This document shows positions 27,000 through 50,714 of a DNA stretch of 64,000 nt, piece by piece. Origin of the DNA: Balneola sp. (lineage in GTDB: Bacteria > Bacteroidota > Rhodothermia > Balneolales > Balneolaceae); the NCBI GenBank assembly GCA_965216175.1, contig OZ244140.1, positions 1,167,126 to 1,231,125 of the forward strand, given 5' to 3'. A program made the translations under genes and the position numbers. Under the pieces are notes generated by a model that was not told the origin of the DNA, did not search any database, and saw only the letters and a program-made list of their open reading frames with translations. Positions within the stretch are counted from its first letter, which is position 1, and the number at the start of each line of letters is the position of its first letter.

Positions 27000-27162
27000 T
27001 AAGTATTTTTTTCAGCTTTAATTTGTGTTGAATATAAAAGATTGAGGATAATATAACGGCTTTTATATGCATTGTTTAATCAAATTTACATCTCAAAGAT
27101 TTTATGAAATAATCAGAAATAGTATTAGTTTTTACCAATCATCTGCAAAATAAATTTAATAC

Positions 27163-28437: not shown

Positions 28438-29313
28438 TTAATACCTTTTAACTCGTCTTAAAAAGAAATTCATCAGAGGTTGAACGTAAGATTGGTTTGT
28501 GTTCACCTCAACCGAATCTATCTTCATTTTCAATAACTTATCGGAAAATTCCTGCTTTAATTTCATCCGTTTTGATTTGTAAGATGATCGTACTTTTTTG
28601 TTTGAAGTGTCTAATAAAACTTCCTGTCCTGATTCCGAATCCCTGAACGGAATCAAGCCAAGATCAGGTAAATTATCTTCATGTTCATCATTTACAATGA
28701 TACTAACTAAATCATGTTTTTGGTTAGTAATTTTTAATTGTTTGTCAAAGTTCGAATCTTGAAAATCAGAGGCCAAAACAACTATTGCTTTTCTGTCTAG
28801 CAGGCGGTTGATATAAGAGAGCGCATTAGCAATACTTGTGCCTTTACCTGTGGGTTTGGTAGTGTACAATTCTCTTATCAAACGCAGAACATGAGTTCGT
28901 CCTTTTTTGGGAGGAACCACTTTTTCAATATGATCACTAAATAAAACCAGGCCCACTTTGTCACTGTTTTTTATAGCGCTAAAGGCTAATACTGCACAAA
29001 TCTCAATGGCAAGATCCATTTTTGTTTGATTTAATGTCCCAAAAGCACCACTTGGTGATATATCAACACAAAGCATAAGTGTTTGTTCCCGCTCTTCTTC
29101 GAATATTTTTATATAAGGATCGCCGGTTCGGGCAGTAACATTCCAATCAATTTGCCTGATATCATCCCCATAATTATATGCTCGAACTTCAGAGAATTCC
29201 ATTCCACGGCCTTTAAAAGCTGACTGATATTCACCTCCAAATAAAGTATTTACAATGCCTTTAGTCTGTACTTCAAGCTTTCTGATCTTTTTGAGTACTT
29301 CTTTTGAAACCAT
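28438..29313 (-). CDS. DUF58 (MoxR-associated, VWA-like) protein
   Basis: SAFKGRGMEFSEVRAYNYGDDIRQIDWNVTAR motif. Confidence 0.92.
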   Translation of the reverse strand: MVSKEVLKKIRKLEVQTKGIVNTLFGGEYQSAFKGRGMEFSEVRAYNYGDDIRQIDWNVTARTGDPYIKIFEEEREQTLMLCVDISPSGAFGTLNQTKMDLAIEICAVLAFSAIKNSDKVGLVLFSDHIEKVVPPKKGRTHVLRLIRELYTTKPTGKGTSIANALSYINRLLDRKAIVVLASDFQDSNFDKQLKITNQKHDLVSIIVNDEHEDNLPDLGLIPFRDSESGQEVLLDTSNKKVRSSYKSKRMKLKQEFSDKLLKMKIDSVEVNTNQSYVQPLMNFFLRRVKRY

Positions 29314-29615: not shown

Positions 29616-30095
29616 ATGAAACATAAGTACATATTTTTATTCGTTTTATTTCTGGGTTTATCTGTAAACACATTTGCACAAAGTGGTGAAGTTTCTTCAG
29701 TATTGAAGGCTTACAAAATAACTTTTGATGCAGATAGTAACGAGGTTGCTAATGAAGTAACTGAGGTAAAACCGGGAGATATCATTGAATATCGACTTAC
29801 TTACCAGAATGGAACAGGCGGAGACATATCTCAACTCATGCCTGTTTTGCCAATTCCGCTAGAGATGTTCTATCTCGAAAGCACTGCATCGCCAGAGCTA
29901 AGTGGGGCAAGTGTTAGCACTATTGCTAATGACTTCAGACAACCTCCTTTGACACGTCAGGTTACATTACCGGATGGGTCGCAGGTGAACCGCGTGATTC
30001 CTGCACAGGAATATCGACGCTTACAATGGCTAGTTCCTGCTCTTGCGGCAGGAGAAAGTATAACTCTAACCGCAAGAGTTGAGGTCCGATCATGA
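29616..30095 (+). CDS. Small secreted single-DUF11-domain protein (C-terminally truncated domain)
   Basis: Signal peptide (TFA|Q); VKPGDIIEYRLTYQN, LPIP and LAAGESITLTARVEV* motifs; ATGA-coupled to the next gene. Confidence 0.8.
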   Translation: MKHKYIFLFVLFLGLSVNTFAQSGEVSSVLKAYKITFDADSNEVANEVTEVKPGDIIEYRLTYQNGTGGDISQLMPVLPIPLEMFYLESTASPELSGASVSTIANDFRQPPLTRQVTLPDGSQVNRVIPAQEYRRLQWLVPALAAGESITLTARVEVRS

Positions 30096-32836
30096 CCAGA
30101 ACTAAAACACAATTTCAAAATTCAAATCTAAACAGTGTTCAAAAAAACAATCAATTGAACCATAATAATAGGATTCAAACAATGAAAACAACACATAAAC
30201 TACGACAAAGGGTACAAGCTTTTGTAGGGTTACTTATGGTTTTCGCAGTGGTACTGGGTACATCTTCGGGTGTGTTCGCACAGGTTCCACCTGCAACTTC
30301 TTCCATCGGTAACCAAGCAACTGCTACGTACATTGATAACGGGAGTAACAATCAATCAGTTACTTCTAATACTGTTGTTACTACGGTACAACAAGTAGCA
30401 GGTGTTACAATTACTGCCGGAGTAACCAAGCAGGTTAGTATTGGCGGTCAGGTAACATTTAGTCACATTATTGCTAACACAGGAAACGGAGCAGATTCGT
30501 TTACTCTTACTGCTGTAGATGCTAATAATGGAGCTTACAATTTCACAAACATCAGGATTTATCCGGATGCGAATGGAGATGGTATTGCTGATAACTTTAC
30601 AGAAATAACAAGCACTCCTAGTATAGATCGTTCAGGCTTACCTAATAATACCTTCGGGATCGTGATAGTAGCTGATATACCTGCTTCTGCTCAGGATGGA
30701 CAATTCGAAGATATTACTGTAACAGCTACCAGTGTATTTGACACGAATGAATCTGCTTCTGCAACTGATAAAGCTCAAGTTGATGAAGATGCAGTTATTT
30801 CTGTAAGTAAAGCTGTTAGCCAAACTACAGCTGATGTAGCCGATACGCTTACCTACACAATCAACTATTCTGAAAATGGTAATGCTGCGGCTTCGAATCT
30901 CGTATTGAAAGATCCAATCCCAACTGGTATGTCATACGTTCCTAACTCTGCAATATGGAGTGGTGGTGGTGCGCTTACAGATGCCTCAGGTGGAGATCCT
31001 TCCGGGATTACTTTTGAAAGAATAACCGGCGGTATTCAGGATACATTATCTGCTGTAGTTGCTAATGTGGCAAACGGTTCTTCAGGTACTCTTTCTTTTA
31101 AGGTGGTTGTTGATGCAGGACAAGAAGGAGAGACTATCACTAATACAGTATTAACAACCCATGATGATATTGTAGGTGAAAATACTGTGAACGGTCAAGC
31201 TGTTACAATCAATGAGAACTATGACATCGAATTAGTTGATGCTCAAATAGTAGTTGTTGATTCAACTGAACAAGGTTCAACGGTTAATTTCATAAACCGC
31301 TATGTAAATACAGGTAGTACTGCGGATACATATAACATTGAGTTAGGAACAGATAATTACCCAAGTGGTAGACAATTCTTTCTCTATAAGGCGGATGGTA
31401 ATAACAACCCTACCAGTACCTACCAGGATACCGGATCAGATGGAAAACCAGATACTGGAAATATCCAACCCGGAGATACAGTAGTTGTAATCTTACAGGT
31501 TCAATTGCCTTCAGGAATAAGTGGTGTTGGGCCATTTTCTGTTGATAAGACTCTTACTTCCATAGGAGATCCTAATGAAAGCGCAACTCATACAGATCAA
31601 TTAAATACAATTGTCGCGCCAACTGTGGACTTAACTAACGATGCTGCTGCCGGTCTTGCTGGCGCCCTAGGTGAAGGCTTTGGTCCTGAAACCAATGTTG
31701 TTGTGAACGAAACAACAAATCCAAATGCTACTGTATCGTTTACACTTTTCGTGAAAAATACAAGTGCTGGTCAGGATGCTTACGATTTAGGTTTCGCAGC
31801 TGACACAAATGCTTCAGGAAATCTGTTAAATGCAGGTACTTTACCTACTGGTTGGACGGTTACTTTCCGTGACCCTAATGCCGGTAACAGTGTGATTTCG
31901 CAAACGGGTAATTTAGCAGCTGGTGCCAGTAAAGAGATTACTGCGGAAGTTTTCGTTCCTGCTGGGTATCAGCCAGGGGCACAAGCTATATATTTCCGTG
32001 CTCTATCGGCTACTACAAATGCGATTGATATTATCCATGACCAGGTAACTGTTAATACACTTCAGAATATGCAGTTAACTGCAAATGGATCAGGTCAAAT
32101 TGCTCCGGGTGGTTCTCGAAACTATCTCCATACGCTTACTATACTTAGTAACGTAACTGAAAATGATAGTGTAAACTCCAATCTTGAGATTGAATTAACT
32201 AATTCAAAACCTGTAGGTTGGACTTCAAATGTTTACTGGGATTCCAATAATAGTGGAACTATTGACGCAGGCGATTCACTGTTAACTTCAGGGGCTTCTC
32301 CTGGAACTTATAACCTACCTGAAGAAGTGGGTAATCTTGTATTTAATGATCAAGTGAAATTCATTGTTAAAGTTACCGGTTTGGCCGGACTTGATGATGG
32401 GGAAACGAATACCACTACAATAACAATAAGTGATAATATTGAGAACTTGGCTGATAGGTTTAATACTGATATCACCGAAGTTCAGGCTGGTCTTGTAGTA
32501 GTAGATAAATTTCAGGCACCCGATGTAAGCGGTACTGCAGGTACATATACTAAGAACCCTTTCAATGTGCTTCCTGGTGATACGGTGTACTACAAAATCA
32601 CAGTAAGAAATGATGGTTCCCAGCCGGTAACAAGCATTTCACTTACGGATGATACTCCTTCATTTACTAAAATGTTAGTGGCCGTTGTTACCAATGTAAA
32701 TTCAGGTACAGTAGGAACGGTGACTATTACATCTCAACCTTCTGTTGGTACGGCCGGAACTATCCAGGTTGATATTGATCAGTTGGATCCAACCGAAGAA
32801 GTCCAATTTACTTTTGCAGTTAAAGTAGATAGCTGA
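30092..32836 (+). CDS. Secreted multi-Ig/DUF11 protein, putative fibre shaft subunit
   Basis: Signal peptide (VFA|Q; start may be ATG 30182), N-terminal PPATSSIGNQATATY, one internal complete DUF11, terminal DUF11 ending FTFAVKVDS*. Confidence 0.85.
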   Translation: MTRTKTQFQNSNLNSVQKNNQLNHNNRIQTMKTTHKLRQRVQAFVGLLMVFAVVLGTSSGVFAQVPPATSSIGNQATATYIDNGSNNQSVTSNTVVTTVQQVAGVTITAGVTKQVSIGGQVTFSHIIANTGNGADSFTLTAVDANNGAYNFTNIRIYPDANGDGIADNFTEITSTPSIDRSGLPNNTFGIVIVADIPASAQDGQFEDITVTATSVFDTNESASATDKAQVDEDAVISVSKAVSQTTADVADTLTYTINYSENGNAAASNLVLKDPIPTGMSYVPNSAIWSGGGALTDASGGDPSGITFERITGGIQDTLSAVVANVANGSSGTLSFKVVVDAGQEGETITNTVLTTHDDIVGENTVNGQAVTINENYDIELVDAQIVVVDSTEQGSTVNFINRYVNTGSTADTYNIELGTDNYPSGRQFFLYKADGNNNPTSTYQDTGSDGKPDTGNIQPGDTVVVILQVQLPSGISGVGPFSVDKTLTSIGDPNESATHTDQLNTIVAPTVDLTNDAAAGLAGALGEGFGPETNVVVNETTNPNATVSFTLFVKNTSAGQDAYDLGFAADTNASGNLLNAGTLPTGWTVTFRDPNAGNSVISQTGNLAAGASKEITAEVFVPAGYQPGAQAIYFRALSATTNAIDIIHDQVTVNTLQNMQLTANGSGQIAPGGSRNYLHTLTILSNVTENDSVNSNLEIELTNSKPVGWTSNVYWDSNNSGTIDAGDSLLTSGASPGTYNLPEEVGNLVFNDQVKFIVKVTGLAGLDDGETNTTTITISDNIENLADRFNTDITEVQAGLVVVDKFQAPDVSGTAGTYTKNPFNVLPGDTVYYKITVRNDGSQPVTSISLTDDTPSFTKMLVAVVTNVNSGTVGTVTITSQPSVGTAGTIQVDIDQLDPTEEVQFTFAVKVDS

Positions 32837-32869: not shown

Positions 32870-35800
32870 ATGAGGCTGACCCCTCATTCACCTTTTAAAA
32901 AATTATACATACACGTTTTGAACATTAACACTCTCATATCATTCTTGATTCTTCTGCTTGTAGCAGGAATGGGAGAGGTTCGTGCTCAAAATGCTCCGCC
33001 GTCCGGCACAACTATTGTCAATCAGGCTACTACTTCATTTTCCGTATCTGGAGAAACAGAAAGAACAGAAATCTTATCCAATGCAGTAAATGTAATTGTG
33101 GAAAATGATCTGGATTTCTCTCTTGAAATAAGTAATTCGCTCAAACAATTTAAAGGTCAAAGTGTAGAATTTGATCACTATCTAGTTAATAGCGGAAATA
33201 CCATCAGTACTTTTGACATCAATGTCTATAATTGGGAAGGGGGCGAATATGCTTTAGAAAACTTAGAATGGCAAAACGGCTCTAAATCAAAAACATTTAC
33301 GTCTGATACTTTAAGCCAAGTAGTAACTTTGAACCCGGGTGAGAGATTTGATTTCACTTATTCAGGAGCTATAAACAGAGCTGAAGAAGATTCCATTACT
33401 TCTATATTAAATATTGAAGCAACTTCAAGAGAGTTTGGGTTCACGCTCCAAAAAAGAGATTCTGTTTATATTTTAACCGGATCCAGAATAGAACTGAACA
33501 AAACTCAGTCTGGAGCTGACGATCTTAAACCCGGCGATAACTTTACATATTCTATTGAAGGTGAAAACACGGGTGATGCCGACGCACTACCAAGAACGGT
33601 AATCATTGATGGAGTAACAACTGAGAAGGTTATTATGTTGGATTCTATTCCAAACAATTTGAACTTTGTTCGATTTGTAGAATCTGATAAAGGTATAAGA
33701 CTATTTGGTTACGAAGGAAATGATAAGCTTGAGTTTACTTCTGAAGTTCCAACCGATCCGGCTCTGGTATCTGTTATTGCAATTGGGTTTGATAAATTAG
33801 CATCCGGAGAAACATTCAACACTACTTTTGAAGTAAAAGTAAATCCGGGAGCAAATGGCACAATTGAAAATACGGCTGAAGCATTTTACACAAATCCGGA
33901 TGGGGATGAAGAAAGTGCTGCTGCATCAAATGATGTTGCTGCAGAAATCTCAGGCGGTGCCGAGATTGACTACTTTACAGATGATAGTTTTGGAAAGAAA
34001 ACAGGAACCTCCAGTATTGGTAAAAACCTCTTTTTACAAGCCACAGCATCAGCATGTAATCAGTTTAGAACTGTTGTTGAGCAAGTAGAAATAACATTAG
34101 TATCTGCAGAAACGGGCGATACTGAAATATTTTTAGCAACTGAAACAGGACCAAATACTAGTATTTATAGAATTGATGGAGGAGTGCCAACTCGTAATGC
34201 AGTCGATTTTGAGATAGTAAAAGGTAATAGCATACTTGAAACAGTTGAAGATGACTTGATCGAAGCGATACTTGATTGTAAGGGCTTGCCTGCTACAGGC
34301 AGTGGGGGTGGAAACAGAATCAGAACTAATATTGTTGTGGATCCTTATGGTATTGTTTTTGACAGTGAAACTAATCAGCCTATTTCAAATGCAATAGTAA
34401 GCATATTTGATACTAACACTGGTAGTTTAGCTCAAGTATTCTTGGCAGATGGTACTACTCCTGCACCCAGCGAATATACAACAGGAACTGATGGTAGATT
34501 CAACTTTCCATACTTGGAACTTGGAACATATAAAGTAGAAGTTGAAACTCCTGAAGGGTATACATTTACTTCTCAAGTGCCATTAGGTTTATTACCTACC
34601 GGTCGTAAGATTGATACTCTTGCTTCTTATGGTAATGAATGGACAATTTCTAATGTACCTATTGGTAGCAATTTTGATATACCTTTAGATCCACAAGCAA
34701 GAGGAGTATTATTTACTGATAAAACAGTTGACCGTGCAGTAGCGGAAATTGGCGATTATGTTAACTATACAATCACTATTAAAAGTGAGGCAATTAACAC
34801 AGTTCGAAATCTTTTCATTGACGATCTACTTCCATTTGGTTTTGAGTATCAATTAGGATCAACAAAATTAGATGGTGTACAGCTACCAGATCCTGAAGGC
34901 GGGAAGGGGCCAAGTCTTAAGTTTGATGTTGGAGATATTGAAACAGGAACTACTAAAAAACTAACATATCGAGTATTTGTAGGCCCAGGCTCTGAAAAAG
35001 GAAAGGGAATCAATGTTGCGATTGCAAAAAGTGATGAAGTCGTTGTTAAAAGTAGTAATCAGGCAAAGGTTAAGGTCGAAGTTCGTGGCGGTTTATTCAA
35101 CGATAATGCATATGTGATAGGTAAAGTATTTCAGGACTGCAACGAAAACGATATACAAGATTCCGGCGAAGTTGGAGTACCCGGTGTTCGTTTATATATG
35201 GAGAATGGAACCTTTGTAGTTACTGATAGCGAAGGTAAGTACACATTCTATGCTGTTAAGCCGAATAAACATGTTCTTAAAGTGGATAACTATTCATTAC
35301 CTGAAGGAAGTAAGCTTTCAGTTTTAGACAACCGACATGCCAATGATCCTTCCAGTAGATTTGTGGATGTTAAGAAAGGACAGCTTCATAGAGCGGATTT
35401 TGCAATTTGTGAGTGTACTCCTAATGTAAATGACGAAATAGATGCCAGAAGAGAGCTTTTATCTCAATCTTCAGAAGATGGTCTTACAGGCTCACTAAAG
35501 AGAAGCTTTTCTCTTGACGAGAGCAATTCATCTTCAGGTAAAGGAAGGTTTGAGGATGCCAGCGGTACTATTGGTGGAGCTAAAGAGTCTTCAAATAAAA
35601 TTACTTCAAGTCCGGATGGAAAAGTTGATCCAAAAGCAGTCAATGAACTTCAAAATGATAATATAATTTCACAAACTCAGAAACTAGAAGATGCTTTATT
35701 AGGAGCTGAGGATGGTCTCGGGTTCTTAAATATTGCTAACAATGATACTCTGAGAACAAATGATTTCACAATTTGGACGAAAGGCAGATTAGGTGCAAAG

Positions 35801-38800
35801 TTCTTACTTACAGTAAATGGAGAATTAATTGATGATTCTAAAGTGGGGCAATCATCTGTATCACCTACTAACAATCTGCAAGGTTGGGAATATGTGAGTA
35901 TTGATTTTAAAGCAGGTGTAAATACTCTGGTTCTGGAAGAAATAGATCCGTTTGGAAATGTAAGAGGTCGTGAAGAAATTAACGTACTTGCTCCGGGTGA
36001 AGCTACTAAACTGAAAGTTACAGCTCCAATAGATTATGCCCCTGCAGATGGAGTTTCTAGTGTATTGATTAGTGTTGAAATTCTTGATGAGAATGGCATT
36101 AGAGTTGGTGATTCAGCACCAATCATGCTTGATACAGAGTTCGGAAAATGGAAAGTAAAGGATAACAATTCGAGCGAGCCCGGAACACAAACACTATTAG
36201 AAAACGGGTTTGGTGAATTTGAACTTATTTCTACTAATGAACCGAAGTCAAGTTTAGTAAGAGCACATTTAGGTATAATAAAAGGAGAAACGAAAGTTGA
36301 ATTCCTGCCGGATCTTAGACCTCTGATTGCAGCCGGTATTATCGAAGGTACACTTCGATTTAATGAAGCAATCAATATAAGTTCTTCAAAAGAAGCTGAT
36401 GGGTTTGAAAGAGAGTTGAAACAGCTTTCATACAACTTTAACCGGTTTACCGGAGATGCAAGATTAGCTTTCTTCATTAAAGGTAAAGTAAGTGGAAAAA
36501 CACTTTTAACAGCTGGTTTTGATTCAGAAAAAGATAAAGAAGAACGGTTATTCCGAGATATTCGACCAGATGAATTCTACCCTGTATATGGAGAGTCTTC
36601 AATCAAAGGTTTTGATGCTCAGTCATCAAGTCGTTTATATGTTAGAGTTGATCGAGGAAAAACATATGCTCTTTATGGCGATTTTATTACTCAGGAAAGA
36701 AATCAGGATGTGCAACTTGGAACCTACAGTCGTGCTCAAACAGGATTAAAAGCAAATTTTGAGCAAGGTAAAGTGAAAGCTCAGGCATTTGGAATAAATG
36801 CATTCTCAAGTAGAAGAGTAAGAGAATTTCAGGGACAAGGAATTTCAAGGTATGATCTTCCTGATCAGGATATCGTGGATAACAGCGAGATCATTGAGAT
36901 TATAACTTACGACAGAGAACAGCCTGAAATAATTTTAAGTGTTGAAAAACTTACTCGTTTCAGAGACTATGTGATCGATCCTTTCTCAGGTGTTATTACC
37001 TTTAAAACACCGGTTTCAAGTGTTGATTCTGAATTCAATCCTGTATTTATTCGCACTACTTATGAAGTAACAAATAATCAAGATCGTTACTTAATTGGTG
37101 GAGTAAAGGCAGAAACAGATATCTCAGAAGGAATAAAAGTTGGTGCAAGCGCTGTACAGGACAATAACCCCGAAAACCAGTTCAGATTACTATCAGGTAA
37201 CGTTTCTGCCGATCTAACCAAAAACACGAAAGTAGTTGGTGAATTTGCTAACACAAATACTGATAACGACGGTAACGGGAATGCAGTAAGGGTAGAGTTA
37301 AATCATAAAGGATCAAAGCTTGATGTATTTGCCCAGGCAGGTAAATCGGGTGAAAACTTTAGAAATGAAGGTTCAACTTTAGGACAGGGACGAACAGAAG
37401 CAAGAGCAAGAACCAGATACAAATTGAATAACTCTACTTCCATTAAAAATGAACTTATCTATACGAGAAATGATACTACCAGTGATCGTACATTCGGAGG
37501 TTTAATTTCAGCAAACAGAACATTCGCTAATAATGTGAATGCTGAAGTAGGATTCAGATATTCAGAAAATTATAAATCAGCGCAAGATACTACCAGCTAT
37601 AACACAAATATCAGAGGTAAGATAAAAGCAGATCTTCCTTTCTTATCTGGTGCTTCTGCTTTCGGTGAAATTGAACAGGATCTAAATGAAGCTGACAAAA
37701 GATTGATAGCAGTTGGTGCAGATTATAGATTAAGAAAAATTGCTAAAGTTTACGCGCGTCATGAGTTTATTTCAAGTGCTGGTGGCATTAATACATTAAG
37801 TGGTAGCCAACAAAAGAATAACACCGTAGTTGGTATCGATGCTAGCTATATGAAAAACGGCCAAGTGTATAGTGAATATAGATTGAATGATTCATTCGAT
37901 GGGAGAAGTGGTCAGGCAGCTATTGGATTGAGAAACCAGTTCAGAATTTCTGAAGGACTTGGTTTAAATTTCGGTTTTGAGCGAGTATTTACACTAGAAG
38001 GTCAGGCAATTAATGATGGAACAGCTATTACATCTGCCGTAGATTACACAGGAAGCGATAACTGGAAAGCAACGGCAAGAGCTGAAGCCAGATTCACGTC
38101 CAAAACCAACACTTACTTAAATAGCTTAGGATATGGACTGAAGTTAAATTCAGACTGGACTCTGTTAACTAAAAATATTATTTCTGTAAATACTATTGAC
38201 GGAGCGTCTGGACTAAACAAACTTCAAGAACGATTACAGGTTGGTGCTGCATATAGAGGTACGGCAACGAATAAATTCGACGCGTTATTCAGATATGAGT
38301 TTAAACATGAAATCGATAAAAACGTGGATGCGGATTTCTTTAGAACAGCTCATGTACTTTCAAGTCATGGTAACTACCATCCAACTCGTGATCTTACTTT
38401 ATCAGGTAGACTTGCTGCAAAATATTCACTTGAATCTGACAGTCAGTTAAGAACATCAACTTTCCTAGAGCTATTGTCAGGTAGAGTTCTTTATGATATT
38501 GATGAGAAATGGGACGTTGGAGTTAACGCAAGCATATTAGCAAATAGTGATTTTACAACTAAAGATTATGGCTTTGGTATTGAAGCCGGATTCCTTATTG
38601 CAACAAACCTAAGACTTGCAGCCGGGTATAATTTCTTCGGATATGATGACGAAGATTTAACTGCAAATAACTATACACAGCAAGGCACCTACTTAGGATT
38701 CAGTTATAAATTTGATGAGCGTTTATTTGATAATCTGATTCCTGATCGAATTAAGAAAACTCCAATTGTAGATGCTAGTAATTACCTAACTTGTGAAGAA

Positions 38801-40081
38801 GAATGCTTCACTGTTGACACAACTCCTGTTGATATAAACTCCTACAGCCTGGAGTTGATTCCTCACGACTTAGCTATTGTTAACCCTACTTTAAGACCTT
38901 ACGTAGAAAGAAAACTAGAAACGTTAACCGTATTGCCGAAGCATATTCACTTTAACAACAACAGTACTTACATCAATCAATCTGCGGCACAAATGCTTGA
39001 TAAAGTGGCTAAATTCCTAATGGAAAGAGAGGAAGATTACTTCATAAAAGTAACAGGACATACAGATAGTAAGAGCTCACCTGCTTATAACCTGAAATTA
39101 TCAGAACGTAGAGCAAAAGCTGTAAGGGCGTATTTGGTAGCTGCCGGTGTGGATGCATACAGACTTCAATTCGAAGGATTGAGCTATACTCGAAATGCAG
39201 CTCCTGAAAAAGATCGTATTGATATGGCTAGAAACAGACGTGTTGAGCTGGAATTAAGTGTGGATAATCGAAATATCAGGTTTATTTCACAAATTGAAGA
39301 TCTTCAGGTTAATCCTAGCATAAGAGGTATTGCTAGTTGGGATTATGTATTTAATGCTGAGCATAACGGCGTTCCTTCACACTTGAATATGAAAGGTATT
39401 TCCTTGAATGATGTTCACGATTATTTAGTAAGAAGAGTAGCATTTGCATTGGCTTTCTACCCTCAAATGGATATTGTAATTACAGCACCTAATTCCGATC
39501 TAGCCGGAAATGTTGTAGCAATCCTCAATAGTGAGGGAATAGATACAGAGCGAATTTCAACGGAAATTGATGAAAGTAGTAAGAAAGTAGTATTTGGCTA
39601 TTCAAATAATAATGAGCTGGTAAATGTATATGAGCAAAACGATGATGTGAAGCTTGTAAATAACAGAGTTGCTCTTTCAATGATGGATAACTTGCTTAAC
39701 ATTTTACGTGAGCGTGAAGATTTGATCCTTCTAAGAGACTTCTCACAAAGTTATTCAGTTCCAAACTCCATTAAATTTTCGGGCAATACAACCAATTTGA
39801 GTAACGAAACGCAAGCCATCTTATCAAGAGTAGGTTCATATCTAAAGAATACAAGAGCTGTAACTCTTAAACTTTCGAGTGATGGAAGCCAAAGAGCTGA
39901 CTTGAGATTGAAGGCTATAAAAGCTTACTTAACAGATTGGGGTTTAAATAGTAATAGAATAGAAATTAGCTCATCAGCTAATTCAAACAAAGATCAGATT
40001 ATTTTGGATTATATGAATGCAGATTCTATCAACCTGCTGGAACTAGACTTGATCAATGACGGCAAAGGTGGGGGTAAATAA
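32870..40081 (+). CDS. 2403-aa protein: DUF11 and SdrD-B-like Ig domains, predicted outer-membrane beta-barrel, C-terminal OmpA-like domains
   Basis: Signal peptide (VRA|Q); two DUF11; VIGKVFQDCNENDIQD SdrD-B motif; long amphipathic strand region; GHTDS...NLKLSERRAKAV...RNRRVEL OmpA motif. Confidence 0.85.
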   Translation: MRLTPHSPFKKLYIHVLNINTLISFLILLLVAGMGEVRAQNAPPSGTTIVNQATTSFSVSGETERTEILSNAVNVIVENDLDFSLEISNSLKQFKGQSVEFDHYLVNSGNTISTFDINVYNWEGGEYALENLEWQNGSKSKTFTSDTLSQVVTLNPGERFDFTYSGAINRAEEDSITSILNIEATSREFGFTLQKRDSVYILTGSRIELNKTQSGADDLKPGDNFTYSIEGENTGDADALPRTVIIDGVTTEKVIMLDSIPNNLNFVRFVESDKGIRLFGYEGNDKLEFTSEVPTDPALVSVIAIGFDKLASGETFNTTFEVKVNPGANGTIENTAEAFYTNPDGDEESAAASNDVAAEISGGAEIDYFTDDSFGKKTGTSSIGKNLFLQATASACNQFRTVVEQVEITLVSAETGDTEIFLATETGPNTSIYRIDGGVPTRNAVDFEIVKGNSILETVEDDLIEAILDCKGLPATGSGGGNRIRTNIVVDPYGIVFDSETNQPISNAIVSIFDTNTGSLAQVFLADGTTPAPSEYTTGTDGRFNFPYLELGTYKVEVETPEGYTFTSQVPLGLLPTGRKIDTLASYGNEWTISNVPIGSNFDIPLDPQARGVLFTDKTVDRAVAEIGDYVNYTITIKSEAINTVRNLFIDDLLPFGFEYQLGSTKLDGVQLPDPEGGKGPSLKFDVGDIETGTTKKLTYRVFVGPGSEKGKGINVAIAKSDEVVVKSSNQAKVKVEVRGGLFNDNAYVIGKVFQDCNENDIQDSGEVGVPGVRLYMENGTFVVTDSEGKYTFYAVKPNKHVLKVDNYSLPEGSKLSVLDNRHANDPSSRFVDVKKGQLHRADFAICECTPNVNDEIDARRELLSQSSEDGLTGSLKRSFSLDESNSSSGKGRFEDASGTIGGAKESSNKITSSPDGKVDPKAVNELQNDNIISQTQKLEDALLGAEDGLGFLNIANNDTLRTNDFTIWTKGRLGAKFLLTVNGELIDDSKVGQSSVSPTNNLQGWEYVSIDFKAGVNTLVLEEIDPFGNVRGREEINVLAPGEATKLKVTAPIDYAPADGVSSVLISVEILDENGIRVGDSAPIMLDTEFGKWKVKDNNSSEPGTQTLLENGFGEFELISTNEPKSSLVRAHLGIIKGETKVEFLPDLRPLIAAGIIEGTLRFNEAINISSSKEADGFERELKQLSYNFNRFTGDARLAFFIKGKVSGKTLLTAGFDSEKDKEERLFRDIRPDEFYPVYGESSIKGFDAQSSSRLYVRVDRGKTYALYGDFITQERNQDVQLGTYSRAQTGLKANFEQGKVKAQAFGINAFSSRRVREFQGQGISRYDLPDQDIVDNSEIIEIITYDREQPEIILSVEKLTRFRDYVIDPFSGVITFKTPVSSVDSEFNPVFIRTTYEVTNNQDRYLIGGVKAETDISEGIKVGASAVQDNNPENQFRLLSGNVSADLTKNTKVVGEFANTNTDNDGNGNAVRVELNHKGSKLDVFAQAGKSGENFRNEGSTLGQGRTEARARTRYKLNNSTSIKNELIYTRNDTTSDRTFGGLISANRTFANNVNAEVGFRYSENYKSAQDTTSYNTNIRGKIKADLPFLSGASAFGEIEQDLNEADKRLIAVGADYRLRKIAKVYARHEFISSAGGINTLSGSQQKNNTVVGIDASYMKNGQVYSEYRLNDSFDGRSGQAAIGLRNQFRISEGLGLNFGFERVFTLEGQAINDGTAITSAVDYTGSDNWKATARAEARFTSKTNTYLNSLGYGLKLNSDWTLLTKNIISVNTIDGASGLNKLQERLQVGAAYRGTATNKFDALFRYEFKHEIDKNVDADFFRTAHVLSSHGNYHPTRDLTLSGRLAAKYSLESDSQLRTSTFLELLSGRVLYDIDEKWDVGVNASILANSDFTTKDYGFGIEAGFLIATNLRLAAGYNFFGYDDEDLTANNYTQQGTYLGFSYKFDERLFDNLIPDRIKKTPIVDASNYLTCEEECFTVDTTPVDINSYSLELIPHDLAIVNPTLRPYVERKLETLTVLPKHIHFNNNSTYINQSAAQMLDKVAKFLMEREEDYFIKVTGHTDSKSSPAYNLKLSERRAKAVRAYLVAAGVDAYRLQFEGLSYTRNAAPEKDRIDMARNRRVELELSVDNRNIRFISQIEDLQVNPSIRGIASWDYVFNAEHNGVPSHLNMKGISLNDVHDYLVRRVAFALAFYPQMDIVITAPNSDLAGNVVAILNSEGIDTERISTEIDESSKKVVFGYSNNNELVNVYEQNDDVKLVNNRVALSMMDNLLNILREREDLILLRDFSQSYSVPNSIKFSGNTTNLSNETQAILSRVGSYLKNTRAVTLKLSSDGSQRADLRLKAIKAYLTDWGLNSNRIEISSSANSNKDQIILDYMNADSINLLELDLINDGKGGGK

Positions 40082-43000
40082 TTGAGTATTAGAAATTATA
40101 TAACACAGTTTTTCGCAGCTTTGCTGGTAATTTTTATAGTTACAGCATCAGGGTACGCTCAACCAACGGGTTACGGTTATTACAAGCAAATTACTTTAAA
40201 TACAGCTCAGATAACGGGTACGCACTCAAACTTTCCAATTCTAATTAGTATTACGGACAGTGACCTTGTAGGTAAAACTCAGGGTGATGGTGATGACATT
40301 ATCTTTGCTTCTGATACAAATGGATCAACGATCTATGATCATCAAATGGAAAGTTATAATTCATCTACAGGGACGTATCGTGCGTGGGTAAGAATACCGA
40401 CATTATCTGACGCAAATAACACGCTGGTAATGTTTTATGGAAATTCATCTGCTACAAATACATCTTCAACAAATACCTGGGATAATAATTACCAATTGGT
40501 AATGCACATGAATGATGTAAATGATCAATCAGGTAATGGTAATAATGGTACTAATAACGGAACAGTCTCAATAGCGGGTAAGATTGGCAATGCGAGGGAT
40601 TTCGAAAGAGGAGACAGCGATTTTATAACTGTGGCTGATGATAATACATTAGATATCACTGGAAGTATTACTATATCGTTTTGGTTCAGACAGGAAAGTG
40701 CACAGGCCCCGGATTATATTACAAAAGGTCAAAATGAGTCGTATGAAGCAACTTCCAGAGGAGGGATAAGAACAAGGTTTGCAAAAAATGGAGGGAACAA
40801 TTTAACAACTCCAAACACCGATGACCTTGTAAACGGTGCGTGGGTTTATTTGACATTTGTACAAAGTAATTCAGGTAGAAATATTTACCAAGATGCAATT
40901 TCCGTCGCTAATGATAACAATACCGATGCGTTTAATACCAACAATAACGATTTGCAAATTTCAAGAAGCGGGGATGCTGTAGATGGGATTATGGATGAGA
41001 TCAGAATCTCAAATGTCGCCAGATCTGCAAATTGGATATCAACAGAGTATAATAATCAAAATACTCCGGGTACTTTCCACACTTTTGGAGCAGAAATGGA
41101 AGCTGTACCACCAACGGCACCACAGAATGTAGCTGCATTAGCTCTGCCTGGTGGTAATATTCGAATTACATTCGATGATGTTGACGAAACTGGAAGCGGA
41201 GTTGCCTCATATTCAGTAGAAAGATCAACTGTTTCAGGTAGTGGTTATACTCAGGTTGGTACTGTAACTGATGATGAGAGTGTTGATTATACATTTACTG
41301 ATAACACAGCAAATGACGGTACTACTTACTATTACATTGTTACTGCAATTGACGCCAATGGAAATGAAAGCGTTAATTCGAGTGAAGTTTCCGCAACCTC
41401 AGATGGAACTGCCCCAAGCTTACAAACAGCTTCTGTTAATGGAAATTCTCTTGCCCTTAATTATGATGAAGTTCTGGATAATGGTTCAGTACCTGCGTTT
41501 GGTGATTATACTATAACAGTAAATAGTTCATCTGTTTCTATTTCTAATATTACAGTTAGTAATGACTCTGTATTGATTACTTTGAATAATGCCGTTATCG
41601 CAGGAGATAATATTGTACTTAATTATAACTCCGGATCAAATCCTGTTCAGGATAATACCGGAAATAATGCCTCAAATCTGAGCAATCAAAATATTACGAA
41701 TAATACCCCTGATATTACTGCACCTGGTATTCCTCAAAATATAGAAGCAATTGCGGTAGCAGGCGGAAGTATTGAAGTTACATTTGATGATTTAGACGAA
41801 ATTGGAAGTGGTGTTTCTAGTTATTCCGTAAAACGTTCCACTGTTCAGGGGGGCTCTTATGTTCAGGTTGGAACAGTAAATGATAATGAAAGTGCTGTTT
41901 ATACTTATCAGGATAATTCAACCACAAATGACATTATATATTACTATGTAGTATCAGCCATTGATGCATCAAGTAACGAAGGAGCTAATTCTTCAGAAGT
42001 ATTTGCAACTGCTGATTCGGATCTTCCACAAATTCAAACAGTCACCGTAAATGGAGAACTGTTAAGATTAGACTATAACGAAACACTAGATAATACTTCA
42101 ATACCTGCAACAACAGATTTTACAGTTTCAGTAAATAGTTCAACTCGTTCGGTTACAAATGTTTCTATAAGTACCAGTCTTGTTACCCTAACGCTAAATC
42201 CTGAAGTAGAGGAAGGCGATGTAGTTGTTGTAAGCTATACACCGGGATCTAATCGCATTCAAGATCCGGCAGGAAATGAGGCGGCTTCTTTATCAAATCA
42301 ATCGGTTACAAATAACACAACGGCATTTAATGTAACACCGCCTTCGGTTATTATTGCTACTGCTATTGCTGATGCTGACATTCAAATTGAGTTTTCTGAT
42401 GTAGGAGAATCAGGTGAGGTTAGTTCTTATTCGGTGAAGAGATCAACCACTGAAAACGGAACTTACTCAGAAATAGGAACTCTATCAGATAATGAAAGCA
42501 GTAATTATACATTTACAGATAACACTTCTGTTGATGGAACTCTCTATTACTATGTAGTAACAGCTATTGATGATAACTCGAATGAAAGTACTCAATCTTC
42601 AAAAGTATCTGCAACTGCAGACGGAACTGATCCAAGCGTAGAATCGATACTATCGGGCGAAGCTTCAGTATTACTTGATTATGATGAATTGCTTGATATT
42701 AATTCAGTTCCTTCAACTTCAGATTTCGTAGTTAGCGTTAATGGTAGTTCCGTTTCTATATCATCAGTAACAGTCAGTAATGTGCGGGTAGTTGTTGAGC
42801 TGGTTAATTCAATCCAATCAGGTGATAATGTAACACTTAGTTATACCTCAGGATCTAATCCAATCAAAGATATAGCTGGAAATAATGCCGCTAATTTCTC
42901 AAATCAGAGTACAGTGAATTATGCCAAAACAAATATTGCTTTTGGTCCGGATCCATGCCCGATTGTAAACGGAAATGATGCTAGCTGGGCTTGTTTTGAT

Positions 43001-46000
43001 GGTGTTAATAACGGAACATCAATGACAGCAAGAGTTGGAGATCTTGATTTAGCAACGGTAACAGCAGCTTCAGGAAGCCAAACAATTTTTGCGCCAAATG
43101 CACTTCAGGAATGGTCAAGTGGTACTTTTTCAGGTGATGAGTTCAATGGTCCACAAATAAACCCTACTGGAAATGCTAATAATGCAACATCATTTGATAT
43201 TAACATCCCAAGTACTGTACCATCTGATGCGATAATTTTAAGTTTAAATAAATTGCGTCCTGAGTCAGGAGGAACTTCATATACCCTGGAAGCATTTGAC
43301 GGTACGAATACCAAAGTACCGGTAAATGGCTGGATAACGGGGCAGGGAGGTGATGGTGGAATTTGTTCAAATTCTATAAACCTGAATTATACAAACTCCA
43401 ATACAACCATTGAATTTCAACCAACGGTTTCCGGAAATCAGGCTTGTGCATCTTCATCTAATCCGATTTGGTTCCGTATTAACAATACAGGAATAGAAAG
43501 AATCGAAATAAGAAAAACTTCAACAAACCCGGATAATATTCATTTGGGGCTGGCATTGGTAGCTGATTATGGAGATGCACCGAATTCATACCGAACCAAC
43601 TACAATTCAAGAGGTACCGCTCCGGCTTTTCATCTTTTAAGCAATACCGGAGTAAATAATGTGTATTTAGGTGCCGGAGTAGATGGCGATGGAAATGGAG
43701 CTTCTGGCACAAACGCAAATGGCGATGACAGCGAAAGTACAGGTATTGGTTCAGGAGATGATGAAGATGGAAGTTCTGCATTACCAACCCTCAGAACTAA
43801 TGATCAAACTTACAGTATTGATTTGGTATGTACCGATGGTGGAAAAGTTGGTGGATGGATAGATATCAACCAGAATGGCGTTTTTGATTCTAACGAGTAT
43901 GCCTTTAACGAATGTTCGGGAGGAGTTGCAACCTTAAACTGGGGAGGTTTATCAGGGTTGATAACAGGTAGTACTTTTGCCAGATTCAGAATAGCATCTA
44001 ATGCGTCCGAAATAGCAAATCCTTTTGGTGTAGCATTTGATGGGGAAGTAGAAGATTACACTATTACAATTGATGAACCTGCGACTCCGGATTTAGGGAT
44101 CGTTAAAACGGTTGATAATTCAAATCCGATTGAAGGCGAAGAAATTGAATTTACTGTTTCGGTAACAAATCCGGGAGAATTTACAGCTACCGGTATTCAG
44201 GTTACAGATCAGTTACCACCAGGAATAACATATGTAAGTCATTCGGTTTCTCAGGGTACATACAACAATTCTACTGGTGTTTGGAACATCGGAACTCTGG
44301 CTGAGGGAGACACAACAACAGTTTCATTAACACTTACAGCTACAGTTAATAATGGAACAGTTGGCAGTACAATTACCAATTCAGCTAGTATAACAGGCTT
44401 AAATGAGAATGATCCTGATTTAAGTAATAATTCTGAATCTGCCGGGATAACAGTAGTAAATCAAAGTACAGATATAGGAATTACAAAAATTGCAGATAAG
44501 TCTCAGGCAATTGAGGGTGAGAATATTACCTACACGATCGTTGCTACAAATAATGGTCCGAGAAATGCCACTAATGTTAAGCTTATAGATCAAATTCCAT
44601 CCGGTTTATCATTTGAATCATCAAACCCGAGTGTAGGTAGTTATATAAGTTCAACAGGAATCTGGGATGTTGGAAGTTTAAATAATTCCGCTCAGGCATC
44701 ATTAGTATTAGTTCTTTCTGTTGATGTAGGCTCTGAAAACAGCACAATTACAAATACAGCCAGTTTAAATAGTATTGATCAAACAGACACAAATACAGGA
44801 AATAACACGGCATCGGCGGATGTGGATATTGTGGCGGCCGGATTCCCTGCTACTTGTTCAGAAGTGACAAGTCTGAATTTTGATAATGCTACGTTGATAA
44901 GTGGTTCTGCAGGGCAGGTTGGAGCTATTTATCGATTTCTTGGCGTAACGAGCGGAGTAAATGCAGAAATTGAGATAGTTACTAATTTGAATGCAAATCT
45001 GGTAAACTTTGATCAATCAACCTCAGGTACGTCGCAAAACTTTCAGCCTCAAATTGAAGCTGTAGATAAAAATGCTGCTGAGGCATACATTGATTTTGAG
45101 GTAAGATTTCTTGATTCATTAAGTGGAAATCCTAGATTTTTAACTTTTACAGCAACTGCCGTTGATGTTGATGGGGATAACAATGATACTCGTGAGTTTG
45201 TTGGATTTCAACGATTAACCTCTTTCACAGTAGAAGATGCAACAAGCTTAGTTGTAGGAAGCTCAGGTATATACACAACATTTGAGTCTGCTACATCTCA
45301 GGTGGTAAACGGCATTGATCCTACTGATACAGATAATATTGCGTACACAACTTATACTAATGAGCCTCAGTTCAGAATCAGAGGCGGTATAAAAGATCCT
45401 ACAAACACGACGGGTGGAGCTGCTCAGCGACTTTTTTCAATAAATTTTGAACCTTGCTTAATAAATAACTTTTCAGACCCTTCTTCTGAAAACATTGTAG
45501 AAGTTGGAGTTACAAAAACAGTGGATAATAATAATCCTTCTGTTGGTGAAAACATTACTTATACAGTAACTGCAACGAACAATCAGGGTAATTCAGTAGG
45601 AAATGTCAAAATTACAGATCAATTACCATCAGGATTAACTCCTGTTTCTGCGACTCCAAGTACTGGAACATACTCAGGAAATATATGGGATATTGGAACT
45701 TTAAATGGCTTACAGTCTGCTAATCTGGTTATTACAGCAACTGTAAATAGTGGCACGGAAGGAAATACAATTACCAATACAGCTACAATAACTGACTTTA
45801 CAGGCACTGATGGTAATACAAACAACAATACATCGTCAATTAATATATTTGTAAATGACCCGGGGAGCACTGTTTGTAGCGAACCACCATTGTTTAACTT
45901 TAACAATTTTAACCTCGAGCAAGGGGTAACCGGGCAAGTAAATTCGATATATCGTTTCTCCGCAATTTCACCGGGTTTAGACGCTCTTGTGAAAGTTAAA

Positions 46001-49000
46001 GCCATTAGTAATGCAACCATAGATCAAATTGATGACAATGGTTTGGGTAATAGTGCCGCAAACTTTAGTCCGCTTTTTACTGCGACACAAAGCGGGGGCT
46101 ATATAGATTGGGAAATCAGATTTGTACAAGCCGGTACAAATAACCCTGTAAAACGAAATTTCTCAATGACAGCCTTAGATATTGATGGATCTGATCAGGG
46201 AGGAGGACAAACTATTCGTGACTTTTTAGGATTCTCTCAGAATCAGTCAAATACTGTCCAGTCCGGGAATAATCTTACTGAAACAACATCAGGAGCATTT
46301 CAATTTTTCACTTCTAATGTTTCAACAGATGGGTCAGGATCATTTGATATTGACCATATGGCGTACATTTTATACCGATATACTTCCGTTTTAGAATTCA
46401 GAATGGGATCAAATACAACTGGAGGATATACAGATGACAGATTGGTCGATATTGATTTTACCCAGTGTAGAAATCAGGACTTTACAAATCCGGTTACCAC
46501 GACCAGAAATGCAGATATTTCGGTTGTTAAAACGGTAGATAATCCAAATCCGTTGGCAAATGAAAATGTAAATTTCACAATTACAGTAGCAAATAACGGT
46601 CCTGAAAATGCAACTGAGGTTGATGTTAATGAAACTTTACCTTCTGGATTGACTCTGGTACAGGCAACGCCAAGTAAAGGTACTTATAACCAGATTTCTA
46701 AAATTTGGGCAATTGGAAGTTTAGCAAACAATACTTCGGCTACACTTTTAATTGAAGCGTCAGTGAATAGTGGAGTAACAGCTGATTCTTTAGTAAATAA
46801 GGCATTTTTGTTAGGGTTAAATCAATTTGATAATAATGCTACAAATGACACATCTACCGCAGTGGTTAAAATTAGTGATCAAATTGATGGTGTTGTTTTC
46901 AGAGACAGAACAGGAAATGGAATAACAGACGGAGATAATAATTTCGGAGACGCTTCAGGCGATCAAACTGCACTTGCTGATGTAGTAGTACATCTCTTTA
47001 AAGATGGAGGTGATGGAAACCCAAATGGAACGGATGATACTTATTTGCGAGCAGATACTACAGATATTTCCGGATTTTATTCTTTTCAGATTGGCGAAGA
47101 TGCAGATTACTGGGTAGTTGTAAATTCTAAAACAGGTAGCTTGTCAAATGGAAGTACCTGGGGTGAACAAGTGTACGCTCCAAAGGGAGGAATTTGTTCT
47201 GATGGAAATGGAACTAGTACTACCAAAACTAGTGCAGGGAACTGCTTTGGCGGTAGAAGAGGTAATCAGTCTGATAATCTACCAACAGGTTCAGCGCCGC
47301 TAGCTACAGATCTTGCTAATGCGGAACATGTAGCAAAAATCACTTTAAATTCCGCGGCTATTACCGATATTGATTTCGGATTTAGTTTTAACGTGGTAAC
47401 TGATACCAGAGATGGCGATGACGATGGTTCTTCAAATAGAAGTATTCAGGGTTCATTAAGACAGTTTATTTCTAATGCCAATGCAATTTCCGGAGCAAAT
47501 ACGATGAGATTTGTACCATCTATTGCAACCAATGAAATCGGTAGTGGTGGCAATTGGTGGAAAATTACTTTGAATTCTGAACTTCCTGCGATAACAGATC
47601 CATTAACTACTCTCGATGGACGCTCTTTCAATTTGAATTCGCCACTTGCTGTATTAAATCCTAATTCAGGGACGATAGGTACAGGTAGTACTGTTGGTAT
47701 TGATGGAATTTCACTAACTGCTTTTGAAAGAAAGGAACTGGAAGTTGACCTAAATGATGTTGGTAATGATGCACTTTCCATAAACAGTACAGGAGCAGTT
47801 GTAATAAGACATTTTGCCCTGTTCAATAACAGCAGAACTATAGTTCTTACTAATATTTCTGGTGGAACGGTTGAAAACAACATGATTGGTTCAAGAGCTG
47901 ATGGTACAGACCCAACCGGCGTAAATCAATCAAATCTTGGTATTTTGATCACTGGATCAAGTTCTCAAACTCCGTTGATTCAAAGAAATTACATTGCTTA
48001 CACAAAAGACAGTGGCCTTCGGTCAGATAATGCAAATGCTACTATTCAATTCACTAAAAATGAAGTGTATCGGGCGGGTAACTTAGAAAATAATGCAGAT
48101 GGATTAGAAGGTATTGGTACGTGGTTTATCACTCAAAACCTGTTTCACGAAAACGGAAAGTCAAATGGAAGTGACATTTATGGAGGAAGTGGTATAGAGC
48201 TAGGCAATAGTGCCGGAACTGTAACTTCAGGAAATACCATTAGAAATAACACAATAAGAGATCATCGCACAACAGGGATTAATGTACTGAATCAAGTTTC
48301 AAGTACATTAATTGAGAAAAATATTATTACCGGAAATGGGACTGATTATCTTTCGGCACCGTTTAAAGGAGCCGGGGTACGTTTAAGCTTTCCTGATGCT
48401 CAACCTCAGCAAGGTGTGTTTATTACTAAAAACAGCTTCTCAAACAACAAAGGTTTGGCAATCGATATAGTAACTTCAGGAAATGGAGAAGCTGACGGAG
48501 TTTCGCCAAATGATGGGGTAATAGAAACTTCATCTACGGAGCCAAATCGAGGATTAGACTATCCCGTATTTACTTTAGCAACTATTGATGGAACTCAATT
48601 AACTGTTGAGGGTTATATCGGTAAGAATGCAACCAGAATTACAGGTTCATATTCAATTGAGATTTACAAAGCAGCTAACGATAATAACCAAGATGGTTTA
48701 ATAGAAGAAGGTGGTTCTCTGATTCGTCCTCATGGTGAAGGGCAGACTTTAATCGGAACTATTACTACAAATGCTAATGGTACGTTTAGCGAAACATTTA
48801 CTGTTTCATCTACAAGCATTGTTGTTAATGATAGAATAACTGCTCTCACATTCGATTCAGAGAACAATACGTCAGAATTCTCCTCAAATCAGCGAGTTGT
48901 AAATACGGGTGTTACTATAAATGGATATGTATATGAAGATGTTAATCACAATGCTTTGCGGGAAGGCAATGAAAATGGTATTGAGAGCGTAACAATCGTT

Positions 49001-50311: not shown

Positions 50312-50318
50312 GATTAAA

Positions 50319-50714
50319 ATGAATAGAGAAGAAAAAAGACCAATTGTATTCATAGTAGAAGATAATGATGCCTATAGAATACTAACTGGACGCATGTTAG
50401 AACAGAGAGGCTTTTTGGTGCTTATGTTTGCCGATGGATATAAAGCAATTGAAATGCTGGAATATATTGTACCGAGCATAATCCTTTCTGACATTCAAAT
50501 GCCCGGGATGGATGGGTTTTTACTTCATGAAAAGATTGGAGACCTTTATCCTGAGTTAAATATTCCATTTCAGTATATATCATCCACAAAAGAAAAGCAG
50601 CTTATTGATAGAGCAAACACATTAAGCATTGAAAAGTTAGTTCAAAAACCCGCAAGAGCTGAAGAATTATCTTTAATTCTCAAAAATGCTATATCTAAAT
50701 TTGCCGCCGCATAA
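50319..50714 (+). CDS. Single-domain response regulator (CheY-like receiver)
   Basis: IVEDND, ILSDIQMPGMDG and VQKP motifs; ATG 50319 preferred over the overlapping track start 50301. Confidence 0.88.
   Translation: MNREEKRPIVFIVEDNDAYRILTGRMLEQRGFLVLMFADGYKAIEMLEYIVPSIILSDIQMPGMDGFLLHEKIGDLYPELNIPFQYISSTKEKQLIDRANTLSIEKLVQKPARAEELSLILKNAISKFAAA

Follow-up and report, generated by a model that had tools for sequence, protein, structure and literature searches.

A truncated, triad-null CLIPPER (DUF11) protein encoded beside the shaft gene of a predicted split-CLIPPER fibre cassette in Balneola: a possible reversible acceptor of the donor hairpin

Introduction

Domains of the DUF11 family have been renamed CLIPPER, and crystal structure 9IFR demonstrates their intramolecular Lys-Asp-Asn isopeptide triad (Costa et al. 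2025, PMC12617251), in which Lys715 is located on the first strand and Asn806 on the last strand, with Asp748 as the third member (PMC12617251). Fibres that combine donor-strand complementation with intermolecular isopeptide bonds have been described for archaeal thread filaments (PMC9715654) and for BsaA of Clostridium perfringens (PMC11580942), and the abstracts of these reports make no mention of a dedicated non-reactive acceptor protein. This fibre-joining logic would be shared with the locus analysed here, whereas the folds and the organisms differ (an archaeon and a monoderm, respectively). Isopeptide domains in which the catalytic acid is mutated still bind their partner but do not react with it. 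SpyDock, an engineered dead SpyCatcher, binds SpyTag reversibly (PMC6465384). Split self-ligating domains react spontaneously, and a cell that builds fibres from them must therefore block the reaction in the wrong compartment.

Here, these systems are compared with a gene cassette in the window, the 64,000-nucleotide stretch of Balneola sp. DNA that was analysed. The first gene of the cassette encodes a small protein that a first-pass annotation had described as a truncated DUF11 acceptor, and as a possible non-covalent chaperone of the donor strand. The literature retrieved on DUF11/CLIPPER in connection with isopeptide, donor strand, Gram-negative pilus or OmpA consisted of the CLIPPER survey, the archaeal threads, BsaA, and reviews, and described neither the cassette nor the small protein. 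The split-CLIPPER fibre system appears to be undescribed, and its new point would be a family-wide triad-null acceptor that takes a hairpin in silico.

Materials and Methods

An exhaustive HMM search of 1.84 billion proteins returned 2507 matches to the small family at E<=1e-3. Representatives of this search were combined with 80 genomic loci, which had been gathered with a 6-row sub-alignment of the small family, and with 32 Balneolales loci to give 278 distinct small-protein sequences. The donor hairpin of the shaft was recognised by comparison with the complete internal domains of the 3409-aa protein. Hairpin binding was modelled on a Balneola sp. chromosome (locus L122) in which the small and shaft ORFs lie in the same frame and are parted by a single TAG. 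The resulting read-through construct of 239 residues consisted of the mature small domain, a 65-residue linker (intergenic region and shaft signal peptide) and the donor hairpin, and its alignment was composed of 19 natural same-frame read-throughs together with small-only and hairpin-only rows.

Results

Architecture of the Cassette

The cassette contained the genes for the small protein, the shaft, the base and the tip in this order (Table 1), which was also found in Variovorax paradoxus NBRC 15149, Thiobacillus denitrificans RG, and Rivibacter subsaxonicus DSM 19570. Neither the small protein nor the 3409-aa tip protein carried a donor hairpin at its N-terminus. From the distribution of hairpins and acceptor domains, it follows that the small protein and the tip are acceptor-only, that the shaft is both donor and acceptor, and that the base, with its barrel-like region and OmpA domain, is donor-only. 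The base architecture was repeated at loci L001, L002, L061-L065, and L146-L148. The suggestion that the small protein merely substitutes for a missing tip was rejected, since in the window the base gene precedes a tip gene whose product carries a Lys/Asp acceptor; it is also contradicted by tip-like genes after the base in three distant cassettes, the products of which end at the same acceptor strand.

The shaft hairpin had the consensus IGNQAxAty.D...SN.V.T.V.QV in 58 loci. Its mean pairwise identity (62.5%) exceeded that of the small protein (42%) and of the shaft acceptor (40.5%); no other element of the system is as conserved, which would fit a hairpin that has several partners to fit. 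Across phyla, the shaft donor hairpin was nearly invariant (xPxAGTxIGNQAxATYxD…SNxVxTxVxQVxSFTL; loci L066-L145). The base donor hairpin at these loci (L066-L145) shared only IxNQAxAxY with the shaft and carried D, N, or T, not Gly, before the Asn. This pattern suggests two donor classes, from shaft and base hairpins, that may differ in acceptor specificity.

A stand-alone gene for a response-regulator receiver (137 aa, TTG start), located at 50301-50714 of the window, overlapped the end of the tip gene and may be a local regulator of the cassette.

Table 1. Positions of the cassette genes and of their main features in the window.
Feature	Position	Strand	Basis or remark
Small gene, 159 aa, first of the cassette	29616..30095	+	ORF; CLIPPER-like acceptor domain, triad-null, without hairpin
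Sec (SPase I) signal peptide, residues 1-22 of the small protein	29616..29681	+	Read from the sequence; no lipobox Cys
K34 codon, position equivalent to the isopeptide Lys, strand A, pattern L30-x-A32-x-K34	29715..29717	+	278 homologues
L78 codon, catalytic-Asp position, PVLPIP instead of x-x-D-x-L/T-P	29847..29849	+	hhalign against the invariant shaft Asp
Shaft gene, 884 aa from the conserved start M31 (914 aa from ATG 30092)	30182..32836	+	Homologue matches begin at M31 in 43 genomes; 32-locus start survey
Shaft N-terminal donor hairpin SSIGNQATATY...SNTVVTTVQQV, Asn at 30311-30313	30299..30397	+	Counterpart of the two final strands in complete CLIPPER domains
Shaft C-terminal covalent-type acceptor; Lys 32507-32509, Asp 32648-32650; ends two residues after strand F	32489..32833	+	
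Base gene, 2403 aa: donor hairpin, Ig-like stalk, large barrel-like region, OmpA domain	32870..40081	+	Pfam and NCBIfam
Base N-terminal donor hairpin TIVNQATTSF...LSNAVNVIVE, Asn51	33008-33103	+	
Tip adhesin gene, 3409 aa, no donor hairpin	40082..50311	+	
Tip C-terminal covalent-type acceptor; Lys 50024-50026, Asp 50126-50128	from 50009	+	

The Small Protein Is a Secreted, Divergent, and Truncated Domain

The small ORF is a real gene on which purifying selection acts: its dN/dS ranged from 0.06 to 0.12 against four same-genus orthologues. It was present as one copy in the complete 3.89-Mb genome, and 29 close homologues were found in Balneola and Balneolaceae assemblies. The N-terminus (MKHKYIFLFVLFLGLSVNTFA, with cleavage before QSGE) was of the Sec type, residues 1-23 had an AF2 pLDDT of <50, and the mature domain formed a single unit of 137 aa. 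In the family of V. paradoxus genome G483, one homologue (G513:C6:77343-77831) was interrupted by two in-frame TGA codons, which may reflect a decaying cassette or a sequencing problem.

A DUF11 core, which had been proposed from the letters of the sequence, was present in the small protein, although it was divergent. The window protein had no PF01345 match at E<=0.1, and its TIGR01451 match (14.3 bits, E 0.031, residues 49-68) remained below the cutoff of 24. Among diverse members of the small family, 33 of 54 matched PF01345 at E<=0.01, with a best value of 9.5e-8; when nine members were scanned singly, P0109 alone (26.0 bits) exceeded the 24.6-bit cutoff. Alignment by hhalign of the small-family profile with a profile of 32 shaft C-terminal domains gave a probability of 95.9% and an E-value of 5e-9, matched small-protein residues 48-158 to residues 34-124 of the shaft segment, which has 125 residues, and reached the last residue on both sides. 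At the level of sequence profiles, the kinship of the small family to CLIPPER/DUF11 is thus divergent but solid. With the CLIPPER domain of 9IFR, the small protein shares the beta-sandwich family and the motifs PGDxxxYxxxYxN, an LPxP strand, a Trp strand, and a final xTxxVxV strand. A profile search of PDB sequences returned nothing meaningful.

The hhalign endpoints also bear out the proposed truncation before the Asn strand, as do the PF01345 matches, which ended at profile positions 86-96 of 114 in small-family members and at position 84 of 114 in the shaft acceptor. Missing from the small protein were the last 25-30 or so profile positions, which correspond to the two final strands and the Asn. 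The small protein stopped two residues after strand F (SITLTARVEVRS, then the stop codon), and similar ends were observed in the 914-aa protein (VQFTFAVKVDS, then stop) and the 3409-aa protein (TVTFTVKIDN, then stop). The complete internal CLIPPER domains of the 3409-aa protein continued from strand F (VSLTLTATV) to the Asn strand (TITNSASIT) and then to SAGITVV. In all 278 small-protein sequences, the C-terminal boundary was that of the covalent acceptors, and none of them contained an Asn strand or had regained the last strand. Shaft acceptors ended 1-3 residues past the last strand (up to 8 in a few), and some members of the small family carried C-terminal extensions in the form of Ala/Pro/Ser-rich low-complexity tails. 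The small protein fits the split-CLIPPER acceptor type: it is Sec-exported and cassette-encoded, and its domain is C-terminal and ends straight after strand F.

Loss of the Catalytic Triad

As the first-pass annotation had stated, Leu78 replaces the catalytic Asp, and hhalign placed it opposite the invariant Asp of the shaft acceptors. The loss of the Asp was conserved: among the 278 homologues, the position was occupied by Leu in 258, Val in 11, Ile in eight, and Met in one, and D or E was found in none of them (0/278), so the idea that homologues mostly retain the Asp is clearly contradicted. The flanking prolines were invariant. The Lys position contained Lys in 58%, Arg in 26%, and other residues in 16% of the homologues. 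In contrast, shaft acceptor domains (n = 97) retained the Asp in 97/97 and the Lys in 94/97. The small family extended over at least seven phyla. Of the 150 top-scoring entries among the 2507 matches, about 130 were stand-alone proteins of 133-257 aa that covered the whole profile. The catcher domains of the shaft and the tip have the truncation, the C-terminal boundary, and the operon in common with the small protein, which differs from them in never having the Asp and in lacking both a stalk and a donor hairpin. The CLIPPER domain of 9IFR is a stalk repeat with an intact triad, whereas the small protein is a stand-alone secreted protein with Leu in place of Asp, no conserved Lys, and no Asn strand. 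Judged by its residues, the small protein is a secreted, cut-short, divergent CLIPPER/DUF11 domain that has lost the residues for covalent self-locking.

Lys34 is present in the window protein, position 77 was D or E in 21 of the 278 homologues, and E58 was conserved in most members, which could be taken as signs of a covalent acceptor with another catalytic acid or another chemistry. Such an acceptor is nevertheless most improbable. The Lys position was Arg or non-basic in 42% of the homologues, and since the small family has no conserved Lys, a covalent bond is impossible as a general mechanism; for the same reason, E58 and the D/E at position 77 were rejected as alternative catalytic acids. 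Position 77 is mostly T or V and points to the other side of its strand, and E58 alternates with the core residues Y59, L61, and Y63, so it should face away from the core. Furthermore, characterised domains no longer form the isopeptide once the catalytic acid is removed (PMC12617251, PMC6465384).

Predicted Complementation by the Shaft Hairpin

When the small protein was modelled alone, AF2 gave an all-beta model with a pLDDT of about 96. Its Foldseek matches were weak and non-specific beta-sandwiches (best E 5.6e-3), among which 9IFR ranked 40 (E 0.12, TMt 0.47, rmsd 9.3). In the tethered construct, the small domain mostly reached a pLDDT of 94-98 and the linker 41-59, whereas the hairpin scored 91, 97, 97, and 85 per ten-residue block and formed the strands SIGN, SATYT, VRNTT, and VNTIV; mean pLDDT of the five models was 80.9-81.9. 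The tethered model matched 9IFR with an E-value of 1.2e-3, a TMt of 0.67, and an rmsd of 6.7 over 234 columns. An alignment of this length implies that the match spans the linker into the hairpin. The TMt to 9IFR thus changed from 0.47 for the small protein alone to 0.67 with the hairpin tethered, and the other Foldseek matches included the isopeptide pilins BcpA, the C-terminal domain of SpaP, and CNA.

This modelling indicates that the hairpin would complete the fold of the small protein in the canonical position, in a groove that would not be filled in cis. The placement was read from pLDDT, DSSP, and the span of the Foldseek alignment for a single hairpin sequence in one construct, and AF2 tends to complete familiar folds. 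The earlier claim that the small protein could bind the N-terminal donor hairpin is accordingly supported in silico only, by a hairpin pLDDT of 91-97 and the completion of a CLIPPER-like fold. Within these models, the small protein is well supported as a candidate non-covalent acceptor of the shaft donor hairpin, the same hairpin that the shaft and tip catcher domains are predicted to take. An extra internal hairpin (residues 111-127 approximately, PLxRxV...DG) was considered as a filler of the groove in cis; it was tentatively set aside, since the tethered model keeps these strands and still docks the donor hairpin at very high confidence.

The confident fold of the small protein by itself could also mean that the truncated sandwich is stable as it stands. 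The small protein would then be an accessory Ig-like protein with no part in hairpin binding, and its conserved surface (E43, E58, R114, Y133/R134, and R154) would bind the giant barrel, as a plug or docking factor, or peptidoglycan or a regulator. Between strands C and E, the small protein had about 20-30 residues more than shaft acceptors, as well as additional strands, and several of the family-specific conserved residues (E43, E58, R114, Y133, R134, R154), charged or aromatic, were invariant and absent from the covalent acceptors. These residues hint, at the sequence level, at another, unexplained interface. However, an accessory function of this kind is quite unlikely: the shared C-terminal boundary was kept in 278/278 sequences and the last strand was never regained, and in the tethered model the extra strands persist, the hairpin docks with high confidence, and the predicted fold moves nearer to a complete CLIPPER domain.

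Co-occurrence of the Small and Shaft Genes

In Balneolales, the small and shaft genes were found in the same 43 of 151 genomes, in which they were always adjacent and matched in copy number; one of the genomes carried two cassettes. Both genes also occurred in the same 5 of 121 genomes in the family of V. paradoxus genome G483. Taken together, the small gene was present in 48 of 48 shaft-bearing genomes and absent from the other 224. With few exceptions, the 80 loci, which came from Candidatus Eisenbacteria, Acidobacteriota, Verrucomicrobiota, Armatimonadota, Beta-, Gamma- and Zetaproteobacteria, and Balneola, contained the small gene followed by a shaft gene (IGNQAxAxY donor, C-terminal acceptor) and then by a giant gene with an IxNQA donor. 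A tip gene was located beside the small gene in 4 of the 4 complete cassettes that were examined.

These distributions bear on a further role, in which the small protein would be a permanent structural cap or minimal tip that stays plugged non-covalently onto a free hairpin, either that of the distal-most shaft subunit or that of a base without a fibre, on fibres that lack an adhesin. The constant presence of the small gene with the shaft is unexpected for a merely optional cap, and the neighbouring tip gene likewise speaks against it. Because a free end bears no tensile load, the covalent lock could have been lost there, but relaxed selection predicts variable triad sites, whereas the Asp position was hydrophobic in 278/278 homologues and its flanking prolines did not vary. 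A cap is unlikely, even though the small protein has a tip-like, acceptor-only topology with no donor hairpin, AF2 docked the shaft hairpin confidently, and the Ala/Pro/Ser-rich tails of some members are typical of surface-exposed proteins. It is also general knowledge that, in chaperone-usher pili, complementation by a donor strand is extremely stable by itself.

The neighbours of the cassette varied. In Balneolaceae, they included genes for a BatA-like vWA protein, a DUF58 protein, and an M23 peptidase (25019-29313 of the window; loci L002, L064, and L065), while a homologue with 42% identity (L001/L061) had a Y_Y_Y/AraC hybrid regulator upstream instead. This difference implies that the cassette moves between neighbourhoods as a unit. 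A second, divergent cassette type was observed in the same family at L017 (G005:C1:2057500-2077000) and L018 (G136:C1:1889000-1908500), with a small protein of 154-158 aa, a shaft of 855-888 aa, a base of about 2120 aa, and a short tip of about 940 aa. Its donor/acceptor logic was unchanged, its small protein had Leu at the Asp position, and both cassette types were present in one Balneola genome.

Start of the Shaft Gene

The small and shaft genes had been described as translationally coupled through an ATGA overlap. The overlap exists (30092-30095), but its ATG precedes M31 (nt 30182), the Met of the signal peptide, by 30 codons, and conservation of the coupling did not hold: among 32 related loci, the -4 overlap was limited to the window and its three nearest relatives. 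All 43 orthologous shaft matches began at M31, which was the sole start conserved in all 32 related loci, and stop codons were found upstream of the signal-peptide Met at the same-genus loci L029 and L030 and at several others. An in-frame ATG occurred within 12 nt of the small-gene stop in about half of the 32 loci, and no terminator was found between the two genes. The small and shaft genes clearly form one operon, and translational coupling between them is lineage-specific at best.

The region at 30092-30181 encoded an Asn/Gln-rich, polar stretch of 30 codons, A-rich in its DNA, ahead of the canonical shaft signal peptide. A similar in-frame stretch (…NKSIILNLNRIETM…) was conserved in several genera and interrupted by stops in others. 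It could be an A-rich leader for translation initiation, a regulatory element under conservation, or an N-terminal extension that some lineages have added to the signal peptide.

Discussion

A reversible placeholder or chaperone is the role proposed here for the small protein, with a probability somewhat short of even. The small protein would be exported to the periplasm as one CLIPPER-type (DUF11) beta-sandwich without its last two strands. In the catcher domains of the shaft and the tip, the retained Lys and Asp would serve to ligate the Asn of an arriving N-terminal hairpin through an isopeptide bond, whereas the small protein would act as a natural dead catcher that engages the shaft's donor hairpin, and possibly that of the base, through two-strand complementation with no ligation. 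The reactive hairpin would be masked in the periplasm, so that self-ligating subunits would neither polymerise nor cyclise before export, and the small protein would be displaced once a covalent acceptor traps the hairpin irreversibly. We infer that the binding would be non-covalent in vivo, that it would be timed to the periplasm, and that it would end with displacement of the small protein.

No hairpin of a tip-(shaft)n-base chain is left without a covalent acceptor, and this points to a role of the small protein outside the final covalent chain. The same is implied by the small gene being kept universally with the shaft and beside the tip. Subunits that ligate spontaneously need a guard that keeps them from reacting too early in the periplasm, for which reversible masking of the hairpin would be the simplest solution. 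In a more specific form of this proposal, the small protein would be a dedicated chaperone of undescribed self-ligating Gram-negative pili, the first acceptor-type pilus chaperone, and its masking of the hairpin would provide spatial control over spontaneous isopeptide polymerisation without a sortase, a protease, or a PapD-type chaperone. This form is conceivable but doubtful. Several points speak against reversible masking in general. A short unstructured donor hairpin may have no need of a chaperone; the open acceptor domains should be the species prone to aggregation, and the small protein is itself one and cannot protect them. Furthermore, if the binding were as kinetically stable as complementation in chaperone-usher pili, slow displacement would, by analogy, favour a permanent cap.

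SpyDock may be regarded as the closest functional analogue, since it is a split isopeptide domain minus its reactive residues that docks its partner reversibly, and the small protein would, by analogy, do the same. SpyDock is engineered, derived from CnaB2, and binds a one-strand tag, whereas the small protein is natural, descends from a CnaA-like CLIPPER domain, and is predicted to bind a two-strand hairpin. The likeness to chaperone-usher systems that had been drawn earlier stands as an analogy of role, but its polarity is reversed. PapD and FimC would resemble the small protein insofar as a chaperone is a dedicated small periplasmic Ig-fold protein, encoded beside the major subunit, that caps the polymerisation interface until the outer-membrane assembly site is reached. 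They consist of two domains and donate one strand to the groove of the subunit, whereas the small protein has one domain and would accept the two strands of a hairpin. PF00345 and PF02753 had no Pfam match in the small protein, which has no homology to PapD. The terminator subunit PapH is similar to the small protein in being subunit-like and excluded from the next joining step.

A triad-null copy of an acceptor beside a polymerising subunit, in at least seven phyla, is a candidate control element or fibre cap. The cassette is present in cultured hosts, including V. paradoxus NBRC 15149, T. denitrificans RG, and R. subsaxonicus DSM 19570, and the proposal is directly testable in them. If reversible masking proves true, the small protein would provide a natural reversible binder, tuned by evolution, for a CLIPPER-derived tag/catcher pair, that is, a natural SpyDock for biotechnology. 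It would also explain how an enzyme-free covalent pilus is regulated, and would represent a third answer to premature polymerisation, beside the chaperones of chaperone-usher systems and the protease-removed prosegments of type V pili.
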